From sequence record NC_106597.1: a stretch of DNA of 64,000 nt; one strand, written 5' to 3'. Shown here piece after piece: positions 4,088 through 38,645 of the stretch (position 1 is the first letter of the stretch; the number at the start of each line of letters is the position of its first letter). The position numbers and the translations under genes were made by a program. The notes below the pieces were generated by a model. It did not search any database, had not been told where the DNA came from, and saw nothing but the letters and a program-made list of their open reading frames with translations. This DNA comes from Escherichia phage BB1.

Positions 4088-4609
4088 TTAGAAATTTAGC
4101 TTCATAGCAAGAAAATTTTTCAAGTTTTCGGTAGACATCTCATCTACATCTACAGGAGAAACAAAGCCGTTTAATTTTCTAGCAAATTTTTCACCATCGG
4201 GATCATTGTCTCCAACAGCTACCAATTTAAAAGGTAGTAATTTCAGTTGCTTTAATAACGCTTTTCCTGGAGAAGAACCCAACATTGCTAGGGCTGGATA
4301 ACCAGCGTTATGTAACGCAACTGCCTTAAATACAGATTCAGCAATCAATACTACTTTTTCATCTCCATTGAGAGTTTCTAGTCCCCATACACACTGGGTA
4401 GTAGAATAAGTAAAGTATTTAGCTTCAAAGGGGCACTTACCATGACCTTTTGGAGCAGAAGGATTATAAGTTTGATAGCCCCTCAACATCCCAGAGAAGT
4501 CATACAACGGGACTGTTAGCCATCCTTCTGGACTTAACCAGCAATGATATTTATCTGTATCAAATCCCCTAGATAAGAGGTGCTGTGTTAGCTCATCAAC
4601 ATTCATATT
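4088..4609 (-). CDS. Toprim-domain-like protein (about 173 aa)
   Basis: Conserved-looking E (IAESVF) and DxD (VGDNDPDGEKF) resembling the Toprim fold; start moved to MNVDELTQ with GAGAGGAACC RBS downstream of promoter 4637-4665. Confidence 0.45.
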   Translation of the reverse strand, partial: NMNVDELTQHLLSRGFDTDKYHCWLSPEGWLTVPLYDFSGMLRGYQTYNPSAPKGHGKCPFEAKYFTYSTTQCVWGLETLNGDEKVVLIAESVFKAVALHNAGYPALAMLGSSPGKALLKQLKLLPFKLVAVGDNDPDGEKFARKLNGFVSPVDVDEMSTENLKNFLAMKLNF

Positions 4610-4636
4610 TGGTTCCTCTCTCAAATTTATAGATAT

Positions 4637-4665
4637 ATTATACAGAGAATTTAGCATTCAAGCAA
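4637..4665 (-). promoter_or_regulatory. early promoter (minus sense TTGCTT-17-TATAAT)
   Basis: attata 4637-4642, 17-bp spacer, aagcaa 4660-4665. Confidence 0.6.
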
Positions 4666-4781
4666 TCAAATTTTTTAACTTTTTAGAGGAAAATCATAGG
4701 GCACTTAAGGGTAGCAGATAAGTGGTGAGGACCAAAATTTGTGACCCCACTAAAAATCCGGGGGCAATTTTTAAAGACCCC

Positions 4782-4810
4782 TTGACATTTTCGCTGGGGT
4801 AGTGTAAAGT
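4782..4810 (+). promoter_or_regulatory. sigma70-type promoter (TTGACA-17-TAAAGT) sharing the 13-mer TTGACATTTTCGC with the element at 34512
   Basis: Consensus -35 at 4782-4787; 17-bp spacer; -10-like TAAAGT at 4805-4810. Confidence 0.5.
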
Positions 4811-4872
4811 ATATGTTATGGATGAGTGATCAAAGAGACACACATTTTCTATATACTAGGAGGTGTCAAAAA

Positions 4873-5859
4873 ATGACAGAAGAAGTAGCTAAGAGTCCTG
4901 AGACCGTCGCTAGCGTTGCAGCAGAACTGCACCGTCACGAGGAATCAGATAAGAAAAAGTGGGAGAAGGTCAGAGCCTACGAAGAAAAACATCGTGAACA
5001 CGATGATGAAGAAGATGACGATGATGAACATTGTCATAAATATGGAAAACATAAAATGCAAGAACCAGTAAACGTATTCACTAGTGGCTTCCCTGGCCTA
5101 CTGGGTGGTTACCCAGCAAACGCAGGTGCTTTCGGTGGTGAAGGTATGGGACTATTCGGAGCTATCCTAATCGGTGCTCTATTAACAGGCGGATTCGGTG
5201 GTTTCGGTGGATTCGGTGGACGTGGTGTAGTTGGTGAAGGTACCGCAGTTGATGCGGTACTTCAGAACCAAGATACCGCTAGTATTCTAGCAGCTATTAA
5301 CACTACTCGTACAGAAGCTAATCAGGGTACTGGGGCTGTGTTAAGCGCAGTTAACAATGGTTTTAGCCAGACATCCCAAAACCAGAGCCGTGATACTCAG
5401 TCTGTACTAACTACGATTTATGGTACAGGTGCTAATCTGTCTAATCAGATCTGCCAGGAAACTCGCAACGTTATTCAGGGTCAGTTCGATCTTTCTCGCC
5501 AGATTGATCAATCTTTCGCAGCTAACCAGATAGCTCGTGCACAAGATAAATTTGATTCTGCACAGATCGCTTTCCAGCAGACTTTACAAACTAATAACCA
5601 GTTTGCCGCTGTTCAGGCTCAGATGTGTGCTAACCAGAACTCTCTGGAACGTCAGATCGCTGAATGTTGCTGTGAACTTCAGACTGCGATCGCTGGTGTA
5701 ACTACTGCGCGTATCCAGGATGAGTTAGATGCATGTCGCCTACGTGAGGCAATCGCTGCGGGTAATGGTGCTAACGGTCAGGTAATTAATCAAATCGCTG
5801 TAAGTCTTGGTGCAATCACTCAGACTCTGGCTGGTCTGCAGGCTAAACTGCCGGCTTAA
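4873..5859 (+). CDS. low-complexity protein: acidic/His-rich N-terminus, Gly-zipper hydrophobic segment (GGFGGFGGFGG), Q/N/S/T-rich C-terminal region
   Basis: AGGAGGTG RBS 7 nt before ATG at 4873 (track ORF starts earlier at 4813); by eye GC and codon choice look higher than neighbours. Confidence 0.6.
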   Translation: MTEEVAKSPETVASVAAELHRHEESDKKKWEKVRAYEEKHREHDDEEDDDDEHCHKYGKHKMQEPVNVFTSGFPGLLGGYPANAGAFGGEGMGLFGAILIGALLTGGFGGFGGFGGRGVVGEGTAVDAVLQNQDTASILAAINTTRTEANQGTGAVLSAVNNGFSQTSQNQSRDTQSVLTTIYGTGANLSNQICQETRNVIQGQFDLSRQIDQSFAANQIARAQDKFDSAQIAFQQTLQTNNQFAAVQAQMCANQNSLERQIAECCCELQTAIAGVTTARIQDELDACRLREAIAAGNGANGQVINQIAVSLGAITQTLAGLQAKLPA

Positions 5860-5880
5860 TATTAAGGGGAGGAGCCCATT

Positions 5881-6297
5881 ATGAGTAAATATGGTTTTGT
5901 AAATAACGGACTTAATCAAAGTATGGGCTCCCAGCAGCCCATTCCGGGTCTGGATAACCCCTACTTACAACAGTTGCAACAGCGTTTAGCAGAAGCGCAA
6001 CAGATGCAGCAACAACTCCAGCAAAACCCTGGAAGTGTGAGTCCTATGCAAATGATGCAGCAAATGAGCGGGCAGTCGCAAATGCCTCAACAAATGCAGC
6101 AACAGGTGCCTCAGCAGCAAGTTCAGCAACAAACCCAACAACCGCAGGTTTCTGCGGAAGGACAGGCAGTACTAGCCCTTTTCGAAGACTTCGCAAAGAC
6201 AGAGGATGGGAAACAGCTTGTATCACTTATGGGTAAGTTTAATAGCTTCTGCCAAAGCCAAGTTGCAAAAGCTCAAAATGGGGGTAGTAACTCCTAA
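5881..6297 (+). CDS. glutamine-rich low-complexity protein (138 aa)
   Basis: GGGGAGGAG RBS; long poly-Q/QM stretches. Confidence 0.55.
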   Translation: MSKYGFVNNGLNQSMGSQQPIPGLDNPYLQQLQQRLAEAQQMQQQLQQNPGSVSPMQMMQQMSGQSQMPQQMQQQVPQQQVQQQTQQPQVSAEGQAVLALFEDFAKTEDGKQLVSLMGKFNSFCQSQVAKAQNGGSNS

Positions 6298-6306
6298 GGA
6301 GGAAAT

Positions 6307-6501
6307 ATGTGTTGCAGAAAATCTGTTTCGTGCTGCCCAATGCCTGTAGCACGTTGTTGCTCTCCAGCAATGTTTACACAAATACCGGCGTTCAATCCCT
6401 TTGCCTTTAAGCCTACTCTTATCCTGCCCCCTAGAGTAGATTTTCAGTCAAGATTGGCCTCCCGTATGGGTGGTTGCTGTACACCGAGAGTATGGTTCTA
6501 A
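6307..6501 (+). CDS. small Cys-rich protein (64 aa, four CC dipeptides)
   Basis: TAAGGAGG RBS 5 nt upstream of ATG; followed by intrinsic terminator. Confidence 0.45.
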   Translation: MCCRKSVSCCPMPVARCCSPAMFTQIPAFNPFAFKPTLILPPRVDFQSRLASRMGGCCTPRVWF

Positions 6502-6511
6502 ACCAAAAACA

Positions 6512-6548
6512 AAAGCCCCTGCCGAAAGGTAAGGGGCTTTTTCTTTTG
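6512..6548 (+). terminator. rho-independent terminator
   Basis: Hairpin aaagcccct...aaggggcttt followed by T-run. Confidence 0.65.
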
Positions 6549-6556
6549 CCTTAAAT

Positions 6557-6592
6557 ACAGAAAAGCCCGCGCTCTCGTAGGAAACGCGGGCT
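6557..6592 (-). terminator. rho-independent terminator (minus sense), downstream of SPFH gene
   Basis: GC-rich hairpin gcccgcg...cgcgggc with T-run in minus sense. Confidence 0.55.
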
Positions 6593-6616
6593 TGGTTCGA
6601 AGATTACGTGTAACTA

Positions 6617-17510: not shown

Positions 17511-19844
17511 TTATAATTGGCAACCACCTGATACGCATCCAGCAGCAGCTTCCTCTCCTGCACCTCCACCGTTTGCGGTGTTGAAGTTAGCATAATAGAA
17601 AGTTTTCCACCCGTATTTAACAGCAGTCATGAAATCACGAACTACTACTGGGCCAGGAATAATTTCATTCTCAAACTTGGTGTAGTCATAGTACATATTC
17701 GTACTGATAGACTGACTGAAGAATTTCTGCATAGTTGCTACCCATTTGATCCACTCGATACGATCCACATCATAAGCCAATTTATAGCTCATTAACGTTT
17801 CCCAATCGGTTGCACCTGGAGCAATTGCAATTACTTTATTCACTGCACTACCTTTGATAGATACAATCTTACGAGGCGGTTCAATAGAGTTAGTAACTCC
17901 TAGCAGAACAGAAGAACTTTCTCCCGGCATCTGAGCAGTCAGAACAGAGTTACGCATACCATATTTCAGAATATCTGCACGCAGAGACTCCCAATCCATT
18001 TCTAGACCTACGGATACCAGTTCATCAACAGTTTTCTTATACGTGTCGATTACCAGAGTTCCCTTAGATGGTTTAGTACGATCAAACCACTCACAGGCAC
18101 CCTGCTCTTTAGCCAGGCGTACAGAGGCTTTATGCAGGAAGTAAGACAGTTTTTCAGCCTCACGGTGAATCCAGTTACGGGCTTCAATACCTTCATAAGC
18201 CAGACCTTCTGCTGCCATTGCACCTGCTGCGTTCATTAGGCCAATACCAACATTACGACGTTTCTTAGCCGTATATTCCATAGTTGGGAACGGATAATCC
18301 TGAATTTCAATAATTGTATCAACGAATTTCAGAAGGATGTAGCAAGTTTTTTCCCACTCAGCTAGAGATTCCATGCGTCCAAGTACAACACCACCTAAGT
18401 TACATAGAGATACTTCACCAATATCCTCCGGCTTCATTTGATCAAGCTGCTCTTTTGTCTTATACAGCTCTGTAATATGATGGAACGGGCGTGTAGGCTG
18501 AGTAATTTCAACACAAAGGTTTGTCATACGGATCGGATCAAGGAAGTTACCGTGACGATTAGATTCCCCGATGTGATGAGCATACATACGTCCTGTTTCC
18601 ATTCGGATACGTAGCCAAGTATCTAGGATTTCTTTTGCAGAGACTTTAGGAGCTGCTGGAACTGTTTTTCCTTCATGGTCGATCTTTGTAAGAGATGCCA
18701 CACGTTTCTCCGCTGCCACGTAGATTTCTTCAAATTTAGCCTCGTCATCACTATAAAACGCTTCATGAACTTCTGGAGCATAGAAGTATGACATTAGCGT
18801 AATATCTTCGTTTTTAAGATAACGTTTTAACAAAAGATTGTTAAAGCTCAGAGAATAATCCATCTTATCGATTTTATTCTCATCTGTAGCACGTTGTTGC
18901 TTAACCTGCATCAATTGAATGATTTCAGGGTCGAAGTATGGATAAGACACTGTAGCAGAACCACCACGAGTTTGCTGAGTATTGGCCTTTACTGAGCGGT
19001 CAATGTGTCGATAATATGGCAGTTTTCCGGAATGCGGGAATGCCCCATTTCGCACCGGATCAGCAATTGATCGGCTTTCAAGATGATACCCGATTCCCGC
19101 TCTGGCTGCGACCATTTTGAAGACGATGTGCTCGGCGGTGTCGATTGAATCCAACGTGTCAGTGGAATCCACGAGACAGCAACTAGCAAATCCACGGTCA
19201 CTAGAGCGCAGACCAACCAGTGGCGGCGTAGGAACGTTGATTTTGTGGAGTGACATTGCGTTGTAGAGGTCGATTGCATCTAGAATTGTCCAGTTAGGTT
19301 GAGATAGCATCGCCATTGCCATACCCATGTAGGCAAACTGCGGGGTTTCATAAATTTCACCAGTGGCTATATTACGACGGGAATACTTATCAAAGAACTG
19401 CTTCAGCCCACCACTAGTAAAAAGACGGTCACGATCATGGTCGATAACCTGATTCAGAGCTTCAAATTGCTCATCGGTAATCCATGCACTCATGTCTTCC
19501 CATGCACCTACGCTAACCATGTGGTCATGGAAGAAGCGTAGAGAAGGTGGTTCGAAAGAGTCATAAAGGCGTTTACGCATTTGCGCAAGACGTAATTCCT
19601 TTGCTGGCACATCGTATGCTGGGTTATCTTTGATAAGACTTTCAGCAGCTTTAATTAATGCGTCCATCAGAGTGTCGGAATCTACAACCCCTTTAGGTAG
19701 AGTTTTTTGAGCAGCCATAGTAATGGCGGACCAACTTACATCAACTGTTTTGCAACCATACTCTGCCCAACCATTGAGTTTTTCAGGAGCAAAGTCTTCT
19801 ACAGTACCGTCACGTTTAATTACTTTTTCAATGCGATGGCTCAT
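17511..19844 (-). CDS. nrdA: ribonucleotide reductase class I large (alpha) subunit
   Basis: ATP-cone N-terminus (VIKRDGTVEDF), catalytic core (NLCVEI, CxxxxGxC tail); start moved to MSHRIEKV with AAAAAGGAAAG RBS because a promoter-like element lies inside the longer track ORF. Confidence 0.9.
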   Translation of the reverse strand: MSHRIEKVIKRDGTVEDFAPEKLNGWAEYGCKTVDVSWSAITMAAQKTLPKGVVDSDTLMDALIKAAESLIKDNPAYDVPAKELRLAQMRKRLYDSFEPPSLRFFHDHMVSVGAWEDMSAWITDEQFEALNQVIDHDRDRLFTSGGLKQFFDKYSRRNIATGEIYETPQFAYMGMAMAMLSQPNWTILDAIDLYNAMSLHKINVPTPPLVGLRSSDRGFASCCLVDSTDTLDSIDTAEHIVFKMVAARAGIGYHLESRSIADPVRNGAFPHSGKLPYYRHIDRSVKANTQQTRGGSATVSYPYFDPEIIQLMQVKQQRATDENKIDKMDYSLSFNNLLLKRYLKNEDITLMSYFYAPEVHEAFYSDDEAKFEEIYVAAEKRVASLTKIDHEGKTVPAAPKVSAKEILDTWLRIRMETGRMYAHHIGESNRHGNFLDPIRMTNLCVEITQPTRPFHHITELYKTKEQLDQMKPEDIGEVSLCNLGGVVLGRMESLAEWEKTCYILLKFVDTIIEIQDYPFPTMEYTAKKRRNVGIGLMNAAGAMAAEGLAYEGIEARNWIHREAEKLSYFLHKASVRLAKEQGACEWFDRTKPSKGTLVIDTYKKTVDELVSVGLEMDWESLRADILKYGMRNSVLTAQMPGESSSVLLGVTNSIEPPRKIVSIKGSAVNKVIAIAPGATDWETLMSYKLAYDVDRIEWIKWVATMQKFFSQSISTNMYYDYTKFENEIIPGPVVVRDFMTAVKYGWKTFYYANFNTANGGGAGEEAAAGCVSGGCQL

Positions 19845-21177: not shown

Positions 21178-21206
21178 TATACTATTTTAAGTACAAAATA
21201 GCAAAT
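21178..21206 (-). promoter_or_regulatory. second early promoter in divergent region (minus sense TTGCTA-17-TATAAT)
   Basis: attata 21178-21183, tagcaa 21201-21206. Confidence 0.55.
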
Positions 21207-21275
21207 AAATTTTTTAACAATTTGCTAACCTTTTAGCACAGATCAAAATACAATATCTAAGAGAAAAATTATATT

Positions 21276-21304
21276 GACATCCGCCCTCGAATGAGTTATA
21301 ATAG
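21276..21304 (+). promoter_or_regulatory. consensus sigma70 promoter (TTGACA-17-TATAAT) upstream of nrdD
   Basis: Perfect -35 and -10 hexamers with 17-bp spacer, about 28 nt upstream of the nrdD start. Confidence 0.7.
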
Positions 21305-34511: not shown

Positions 34512-34540
34512 TTGACATTTTCGCCGCTTAGGTATATACT
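34512..34540 (+). promoter_or_regulatory. sigma70-type promoter (TTGACA-17-TATACT) within the ligase split
   Basis: -35 34512-34517, -10 34535-34540; shares TTGACATTTTCGC with 4782-4794. Confidence 0.5.
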
Positions 34541-34604
34541 ATTATCATTCAGTTGAGGGATAGAAAGTTATGGCGAGGGTAAGCAAAGTTAGTTAAAATT
34601 GTAG

Positions 34605-34633
34605 TTGCTAAATGCTTAAATACTTGCTATAAT
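34605..34633 (+). promoter_or_regulatory. early promoter (TTGCTA-17-TATAAT) upstream of ligase C-terminal subunit
   Basis: -35 34605-34610, -10 34628-34633. Confidence 0.65.
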
Positions 34634-34660
34634 ATTTATATAAATTGATAAGGAAGAAAT

Positions 34661-35443
34661 TTGATGAAAATCGAAATTCCAACACAATGTCCCTCTTGTG
34701 GTTCTAAGCTAGATCTTGTCAACGGACAATTATTCTGTCGGAATAAGTCCAACTGTCCAGCGCAATCAAGCAAGTTAATTGAGAACTTCTGTTCAAAAAT
34801 GAAGTTAAAGGGCTTTGGCCCAAAAACTATTGAGAAGCTGGAGCTGACGAAGATTTCAGAACTATTTTACCTAACCGAAGAAGATTTGGTTAGAGCCGTG
34901 GGTAGCAAGGTTGCCGCTAAGTTAATTAGCGAATTAAATACTAAAGTTCGCGGAGACATTGACTTTGGTTCAGTTCTCGGTTCTTTAGGAATCCCTCTAA
35001 TTGGAGAGGTTGCAGCAAAGAAATTATCCCAAAATTGCACTAGCTTCCATGATGTGAAGGCTGACGGCAAGGCTGGAGAAAATTATAAAGCCTGGCTAAA
35101 TTCCCCACAAGGCAAGGATGTTATCGAATTACCGTGGAAATTTTCAACTGGTATTAAGGGCACTAAAGCTGACGTCATCATTACAGATGAATTAGTTGCC
35201 CAGCCAAATGGAATCGCGGTATGTATTACCGGATCTTTGCAAGATTTTGCAAATCGAACGGATGCAACAAACTATTTAGAAAGTCTAGGGTATACGGTTA
35301 AGAAATCCGTTACCAAAGACGTCAAATACCTAATCTGTGAGGATGAATCGAAGCGTTCTTCCTCATCTTATAAGAAAGCCGAAACGAATGGGATAGAAAT
35401 CCTGTCGATTAAAGAACTATTGGAGAAAAATAATAATGTCTAA
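34661..35443 (+). CDS. ligB: NAD-dependent DNA ligase, C-terminal (Zn-finger/HhH/BRCT) subunit
   Basis: Cys4 zinc finger (CPSCGSKL...CRNKSNCPAQ), HhH-like GIPLIGEVAAKKL, BRCT-like C-terminus. Confidence 0.8.
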   Translation: MMKIEIPTQCPSCGSKLDLVNGQLFCRNKSNCPAQSSKLIENFCSKMKLKGFGPKTIEKLELTKISELFYLTEEDLVRAVGSKVAAKLISELNTKVRGDIDFGSVLGSLGIPLIGEVAAKKLSQNCTSFHDVKADGKAGENYKAWLNSPQGKDVIELPWKFSTGIKGTKADVIITDELVAQPNGIAVCITGSLQDFANRTDATNYLESLGYTVKKSVTKDVKYLICEDESKRSSSSYKKAETNGIEILSIKELLEKNNNV

Positions 35444-37758: not shown

Positions 37759-38645
37759 GTAGAATAACAGAACTACTTGATCTGAAAGGCATTGAATATA
37801 AAGACACAGGTGGGGACATCCTCATCTGTTGTCTCAATCCAGATCATGACGATAAACACCCAAGTTTGCGTATTGATCCTGAAACAGGTATTATGCACTG
37901 CTTGAGTTGTGGCTTCGGTAAAGGTATACCGAGCATTTACCATTATTTTAATGAGACTCAGTACCGACAGTCCCCAAGACTATCACAGGTACGTAAAAAG
38001 ATTTCAGAGATTAGGAATGGATCTACGAATCTTGCAATTCCTGAATCTGCTTACCTTTTCGAAGGTGATTTCCGAGGTATAAGTTCTAAGACCTTGAAGA
38101 AATATTTTGCTTTCCAACACCAAGCAGACTGGGAAGGCAGAATTGTATTCCCAATCACAGATGCTGTTGGACGCAATATCCTATTTTTGGGTCGTTCTAT
38201 AAACAGTTCTGCCCCTCCTAAATACCTAGTAAAACCAAAACAAGTTTCACCGCCAATTTTTCCTGTACGATATAATACTCCAGTTCTTATTCTAGTTGAA
38301 GGTATCTTTGATATGCTGAATCTAGAGGATAATGGTATAGACTATGCTTCTTGTTGCTTTGGTACACATCAGTTTACTTCAGACAACATTGCAGATAAGT
38401 TCAGTCCGTATATTATTGCTGGTGTTAAAGTTGTTGTTATCTTACTAGATAATGATGCTTCTGGTAATAAAGCTGCACAAGCACTGGCTAAGCTAATTCG
38501 TACAAAAACGCGTTTAACACCTGTAGTTGCTAACTTTCTTCTGCCTGAAGGTAAAGACCCAGGTGACTTAAATAAAGAAGAAATTGATATGTTAGCAAAA
38601 CGTATTGAAATTTTAGTTGCTGAATCGCTTAAAGATTTGGTATAA
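37755..38645 (+). CDS. DNA primase (DnaG-type: zinc-binding + Toprim)
   Basis: Zinc ribbon CCLNPDHDDKHPSLRIDPETGIMHCLSCG; Toprim motifs LVEGIFDMLNL and ILLDNDASG. Confidence 0.8.
   Translation: MSRITELLDLKGIEYKDTGGDILICCLNPDHDDKHPSLRIDPETGIMHCLSCGFGKGIPSIYHYFNETQYRQSPRLSQVRKKISEIRNGSTNLAIPESAYLFEGDFRGISSKTLKKYFAFQHQADWEGRIVFPITDAVGRNILFLGRSINSSAPPKYLVKPKQVSPPIFPVRYNTPVLILVEGIFDMLNLEDNGIDYASCCFGTHQFTSDNIADKFSPYIIAGVKVVVILLDNDASGNKAAQALAKLIRTKTRLTPVVANFLLPEGKDPGDLNKEEIDMLAKRIEILVAESLKDLV

Follow-up and report, generated by a model that had tools for sequence, protein, structure and literature searches.

The promoters of bacteriophage T5 have been known to be heterogeneous since the 1980s, and Gentz and Bujard reportedly observed in 1985 that a consensus -35 and a consensus -10 do not co-occur in strong T5 promoters. 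The early T5 promoters follow the consensus TTGCTw / TATAATA, with AAAAATT at -43 and TAAATT at +1 (PMC3326045), and they carry an ATATT discriminator (PMC7472727). P-H22 has been validated as a pre-early promoter and P-J5 as a late promoter (PMC7472727), and we find both of them to be of the TTGACA type.

In the window (the whole stretch of 64,000 nt of Escherichia phage BB1, NC_106597.1, that was analysed), we found two exact copies of a 13-mer, TTGACATTTTCGC, at 4782-4794 (site 1) and 34512-34524 (site 2). Both lie on the plus strand only, and we found no added site in the window when up to 2 mismatches were allowed. The first-pass annotation had taken the 13-mer for the core of two promoters that may form a separately regulated class or share a regulator-binding site. 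The promoter part of this reading holds: at both loci TTGACA is followed by a 17-nt spacer and a -10-like hexamer, TAAAGT at site 1 and TATACT at site 2, and a consensus scan picks up both, with 10/12 matches at site 1 and 11/12 at site 2. The -35 matches the consensus at 6/6 positions at each site, while the -10 matches at 4/6 positions (TAAAGT) or 5/6 (TATACT), and both -10 hexamers have A2 and T6. The window belongs to a T5-like phage (Tequintavirus), and identity to other such phages is about 98-99% at either locus. The promoters are annotated in three T5 GenBank records (AY543070, AY587007 and AY692264), and both are intergenic and co-oriented with the genes that follow. Their hexamers are conserved at the orthologous positions in relatives, with a variable spacer between them. 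The sites are thus very probably host sigma-70 promoters that are already catalogued in T5 as P12 and P-K28b, and the 13-mer, which consists of the -35 hexamer and the first 7 spacer bases, would be a piece of promoter sequence and not a binding site. Reading the two sites as promoters is correct, and was known before. From sequence comparison we infer promoter activity in this phage, with starts at A4818 and A34547, for which the promoter features named in the T5 GenBank records are indirect evidence; we placed both starts by reading each 75-nt feature of AY543070 as -55..+20, a convention that we checked against the known start of P-N25.

The features at and around site 1 are:
4782-4810, plus strand: promoter P12 (-35 TTGACA at 4782-4787, 17-nt spacer at 4788-4804, -10 TAAAGT at 4805-4810)
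4818-4872, plus strand: predicted P12 start (A4818) and 55-nt 5'UTR, with the Shine-Dalgarno sequence AGGAGG at 4860-4865
4873-5859, plus strand: homologue of T5.077, 328 aa, first gene of the P12 unit (phrog_8119)
5881-6297, plus strand: second ORF of the P12 unit, 138 aa, Gln-rich (phrog_7894)
6307-6501, plus strand: third ORF of the P12 unit, 64 aa, Cys-rich, with no PHROG or Pfam match
4637-4665, minus strand: divergent early-family promoter P15a (TTGCTT-17-TATAAT), annotated as 'promoter P15a' in AY543070

Site 1 lies in an intergenic region, 91 nt ahead of the ATG at 4873. Its counterpart in AY543070 is 'promoter P12' at 37954-38028 (+), upstream of T5.077, and AY587007 names it 'putative early promoter T5P21'. 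The T5 promoter and site 1 have in common the -35, the -10, the 5'UTR, the downstream gene and the divergence from P15a; they differ in the spacer, where T5 has TTGACATTTTCTCCTGGG and this phage has TTGACATTTTCGCTGGGG, so that the '13-mer' is only an 11-mer in T5. P12 would launch a small rightward three-gene unit, back-to-back with the leftward P15a, which drives a Toprim/primase-like gene at 4088-4657. In T5, the three-gene unit closes at an annotated bidirectional terminator. The 5'UTR of P12 is nearly invariant among relatives; its predicted fold is not significant (z = -1.0), and Rfam returned only sub-threshold snoRNA noise on this leader. For the P12 unit (4873-6501) we found no Pfam match and only PHROG families without known function, and a literature search on T5.077-079 gave no match. 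In the 328-aa T5.077 homologue the N-terminus is acidic/His-rich and the C-terminal part Gln/Ala-rich, and the protein has a hydrophobic segment rich in Gly.

Among T5-like phages, P12 and its three genes (homologues of T5.077-079; window 4700-6600) form an accessory module that a genome either has or lacks: the module is missing from 6 of the 26 sampled genomes, and these run directly into the terminator and the T5.080 end. We also observed that GACCCC and GGGG(G) blocks alternate at the P12 -35 and in the sequence before it (window 4743-4800), with GACCCC at 4743 and 4776, spaced 33 bp, and G-runs at 4760 and 4796. ACCCC (4777-4781) and GGGGT (4796-4800) make a 5-bp inverted repeat on either side of the -35; it is imperfectly kept, with GGAGT, AGGGT and TGGGT in relatives and no compensatory changes.

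The features at and around site 2 are:
34512-34540, plus strand: promoter P-K28b (-35 TTGACA at 34512-34517, 17-nt spacer at 34518-34534, -10 TATACT at 34535-34540)
34605-34633, plus strand: tandem early-family promoter P-K28a (TTGCTA-17-TATAAT), 93 bp downstream of P-K28b
34664-35443, plus strand: ligB (NAD-dependent DNA ligase subunit B), first gene after P-K28b and P-K28a, followed by D5 and replication genes

The sequence of site 2 is the same as that of 'promoter P-K 28b' in AY543070 (66366-66440), which lies in the gap between ligA and ligB. AY692264 carries the P-K28b annotation too, and AY587007 calls the site 'putative early promoter T5P36'. The 1985 paper of Gentz and Bujard in J Bacteriol 164:70 is the primary paper for P-K28b; our literature search on PK28b and K28a gave no match that concerns a phage. 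We detected no difference between the T5 promoter and site 2: their sequences agree throughout, beginning upstream of the -35 and continuing through the leader, and both occupy the same place before P-K28a. Within Tequintavirus this region hardly varies. P-K28b is the upstream member of a tandem with P-K28a, a pair that would feed ligB, D5 and the replication genes, and it would add a longer-leader transcript to an operon that P-K28a also serves.

The leader RNA of P-K28b (34547-34670) has a predicted folding energy of -26.1 kcal/mol and is stabler than shuffles (z = -3.8). Close relatives gave z values of -3.3 to -3.7, and in other genera z was -0.2 to -1.9; across genera RNAalifold returned no consensus structure. 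The predicted fold contains a long hairpin whose 3' arm covers the spacer and -10 region of P-K28a. After a GAGGG, the leader also has a mini-ORF that begins with the ATG at 34570 and ends at 34596, its TAA being the last of 9 codons. An Rfam search on the P-K28b leader returned nothing.

The two sites had been set apart from the abundant early family, and this contrast with TTGCTw-17-TATAAT is correct but long known. The window holds 24 TTGCnn-17/18-TATAAT promoters, which carry the ATAAATT box, versus 3 intergenic TTGACA-17 promoters, namely P12, P-K28b and the following:
21274-21302, plus strand: promoter upstream of nrdD, TTGACA-17-TATAAT, an unnamed promoter in AY543070 (53884-53958)

The nrdD promoter is without TTTTCGC. 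It is a full-consensus promoter, rare in T5, and it lies in a divergent intergenic region, opposite two leftward TTGCT-type promoters at 21204 and 21064 (-). Members of the early family such as P-N25, P-N26, P-H207 and P-K28a share with the two sites the RNA polymerase holoenzyme, a 17-bp spacer and an A/T-rich upstream region. In contrast to the family pattern of TTGCTw-17/18-TATAATA with an A-rich -43 region and ATAAATT after +1, both sites have TTGACA in place of TTGCTw and a non-consensus -10 in place of TATAAT(A). Where the family has the ATATT discriminator and the TAAATT box, P12 reads ATATGTTATGG and P-K28b reads ATTATCATTCA, neither with ATAAATT. Around -43, the sites read TTTTTAAAG and AATTATAAAG, which are A/T-rich and do not match the AAAAATT of the family.

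This difference bears on the idea that P12 and P-K28b belong to a separately timed TTGACA-type class, either an Ea/Eb sub-class or promoters that are active after early shut-off, which we regard as possible but doubtful. The idea is compatible with the sites being catalogued host sigma-70 promoters, and it makes no use of the 13-mer. It is consistent with the lack, at both sites, of TTGCTw, TATAATA and the +1 TAAATT box (PMC3326045) and of the ATATT discriminator (PMC7472727), and with the likeness of P-K28b to P-J5, which is late (PMC7472727): both have TTGACA-17-TATACT and the same five bases, GTTAT, upstream of the -35, although they differ in spacer and downstream sequence and P-J5 lies in the late region outside the window. 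A further point for it is the pairing before ligB, where a TTGCT-type promoter follows a TTGAC-type one at about 93 bp; this pairing is kept across Demerecviridae genera, in relatives whose LigB is 55-72% identical. However, AY587007 labels both sites as putative early promoters, the genes downstream (ligB, D5 and replication genes) have early functions, and our literature search yielded no timing data on P12 or P-K28b. TTGACA also occurs at the pre-early P-H22, at the late P-J5 and at the promoter of the early gene nrdD; thus, the type of -35 alone does not define timing.

To judge how far the shared 13-mer departs from chance, we compared it with shuffles and with other promoters. TTGACATTTTCGC had no exact match in 100 shuffles, so two copies of this 13-mer are beyond expectation. 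The window has 204 same-strand pairs of repeated 13-mers, compared to about 61 in Markov-1 random sequence; a repeated 13-mer is commonplace per se, and the non-trivial part is the register that it shares with the promoter hexamers. We built a position-specific null for the 7 spacer bases from 46 annotated T5 promoters. Under this null, 7 identical spacer bases have a probability of 7e-4 per promoter pair, which becomes about 0.007 for the 10 pairs that the five TTGACA-type T5 promoters form, a value low enough to make pure coincidence uncomfortable for the match of P12 and P-K28b; some shared origin, or a weak functional preference for a T-run and a GC-rich spacer, may be involved. On the other side, pairs of other promoters among the same 46 have identical in-register runs from the -35 of 18 and 14 nt, so such runs are not unusual in the T5 promoter set, and the P12/P-K28b run of 11 nt in T5 ranks third. 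In the majority haplotype, the shared run is therefore somewhat above trivial coincidence. Among the T5 promoters, those at AY543070 18550-18624 (-) and 55708-55782 (+) are identical over 18 in-register nt that begin at the -35, and they also have in common an upstream terminator tail, GGCTTTTATTTTA; the pair looks like a duplicated terminator-promoter cassette (23249 in the window).

Outside the 13-mer the two sites do not resemble each other. Their flanks match at 25/80 and 31/107 positions, which is chance level (26% expected), and local alignments of the two promoter regions are no better than those of shuffles. We found no dyad symmetry in the 13-mer when it was read directly from the sequence, and by inspection it is without the T5 nick consensus (Pu-GCGC). 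In the complete T5 genome (121.7 kb), a search allowing up to 2 mismatches found the two promoters and one site inside a coding region. A collection-wide scan with two 14-mer extensions gave at least 120 matches for each, those listed being mostly outside the recovered T5-like contigs; this is expected for a 14-mer given the size of the collection, and the scan is uninformative on the motif.

To follow the spacer through relatives, we drew orthologous regions from IMG/VR via the flanking proteins, and found P12 in the same form in 19 T5-like genomes, which represent 16 haplotypes. The 16 do not differ from one another in columns 4769-4791 (TTTTAAAGACCCC, TTGACA and TTTT) or in columns 4805-4834, which hold TAAAGT and the region of the start. 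The variable columns are in mid-spacer, at 4792, 4793, 4794, 4795, 4796, 4798, 4802 and 4804, so that 8/13 spacer positions beyond TTTT vary. All three bases past TTGACATTTT are among them: position 4792 changes from C to T or from C to A (four haplotypes, recurrent), position 4793 from G to T and position 4794 from C to T. T5 itself has TTGACATTTTCTC / TTGACATTTTCTCC at site 1, that is, CTC where this phage has CGC. When P12 was compared in register with P-K28b of its own genome, the identical run was 15 nt in 2 genomes, 13 nt in 11, 11 nt in 1 (T5), 10 nt in 2, 9 nt in 1 and 4 nt in 2. The 4-nt cases arose from a 30-bp deletion that made a different -35 (TTGATT), and they have other downstream content. 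The full 13-15-mer at site 1 is the majority state (13/19 genomes) and probably the ancestral one.

This distribution bears on the idea that the identity is a relic of descent, in which a short promoter patch was recombined between the two sites and its spacer has since been decaying neutrally. Such a history would agree with the finding that the seemingly ancestral haplotype has the longest identity (13-15 nt), of which several lineages have lost a part. It would also agree with the P12 unit being a present-or-absent accessory module. The duplicated terminator-promoter cassettes in T5, such as the promoters at 18550 and 55708, make a short patch of common descent possible. Nevertheless, there is no likeness past 13-15 nt on either side, and a patch so short is indistinguishable from coincidence; we consider this specific history unlikely.

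At site 2, diverged relatives provide a second view of the spacer. Relatives in which LigB is 55-72% identical keep TTGAC(A/G)-17-TATA(C/A)T ahead of a TTGCT-type promoter, with the distance between the two unchanged, and we found this tandem, spaced about 93 bp, in front of ligB in five representatives across Demerecviridae genera. The bases after the site-2 hexamer in these diverged Demerecviridae are TTTTCAT, ACACGTC, TCGCGAC or TACACAT. The hexamers and the tandem are thus kept while the start of the spacer is replaced, which indicates that selection maintains the former and not TTTTCGC. Conservation of the ligB tandem further suggests that its TTGAC-type and TTGCT-type promoters may not be redundant.

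These data speak against the 13-mer as a common core or regulator-binding site, the part of the earlier proposal that found no support. If the 13-mer or its TTTTCGC part were a common operator through which a phage or host regulator co-regulates both promoters, then its exact identity over 13 nt in register with the promoter elements, the 13-15 nt of identity in the majority of T5-like genomes with both promoters, and the nominal value of about 0.007 under the position-specific null would all find an explanation. In contrast, C4792, G4793 and C4794 are polymorphic in close relatives, T5 with its CTC included, while the adjoining functional elements are invariant, so the full motif is not conserved at orthologous sites. 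Diverged relatives retain the P-K28b-type promoter and have lost the 7-mer, the motif is without dyad symmetry, and neither the 121.7 kb of T5 nor the window has an extra copy in promoter context at up to 2 mismatches. Because TTTTCGC drifts among relatives, the 13-mer is not a conserved operator, and we regard such an operator as very improbable. A more speculative version would make TTTTCGCYG (about -29 to -21) a functional sub-element of a few TTGACA-type promoters, read by a phage factor (perhaps D5) or through spacer contacts of the polymerase; P12 and P-K28b would then behave alike and unlike TTGCTw promoters, and the ligB tandem would act as a temporal switch. We give this version, too, hardly any credence.

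Taken together, the sequence anatomy and the pattern of conservation indicate that P12 and P-K28b are host sigma-70 promoters whose perfect -35 and sub-optimal -10 are recognised by the holoenzyme at 17-bp spacing. The TTTT beside the -35 is conserved and CGC would be unconstrained spacer, with the CGC identity at both sites being due either to coincidence or to a short patch of common descent. The phage thus keeps two catalogued T5 promoters, and the result removes a tempting 'regulatory 13-mer' that has no support; it has little wider import. The mechanism of the switch between T5 transcription classes is still unexplained (PMC7472727), and the ligB/D5 tandem, conserved as it is across Demerecviridae genera, offers a convenient locus at which to ask whether the -35 type has a part in timing.
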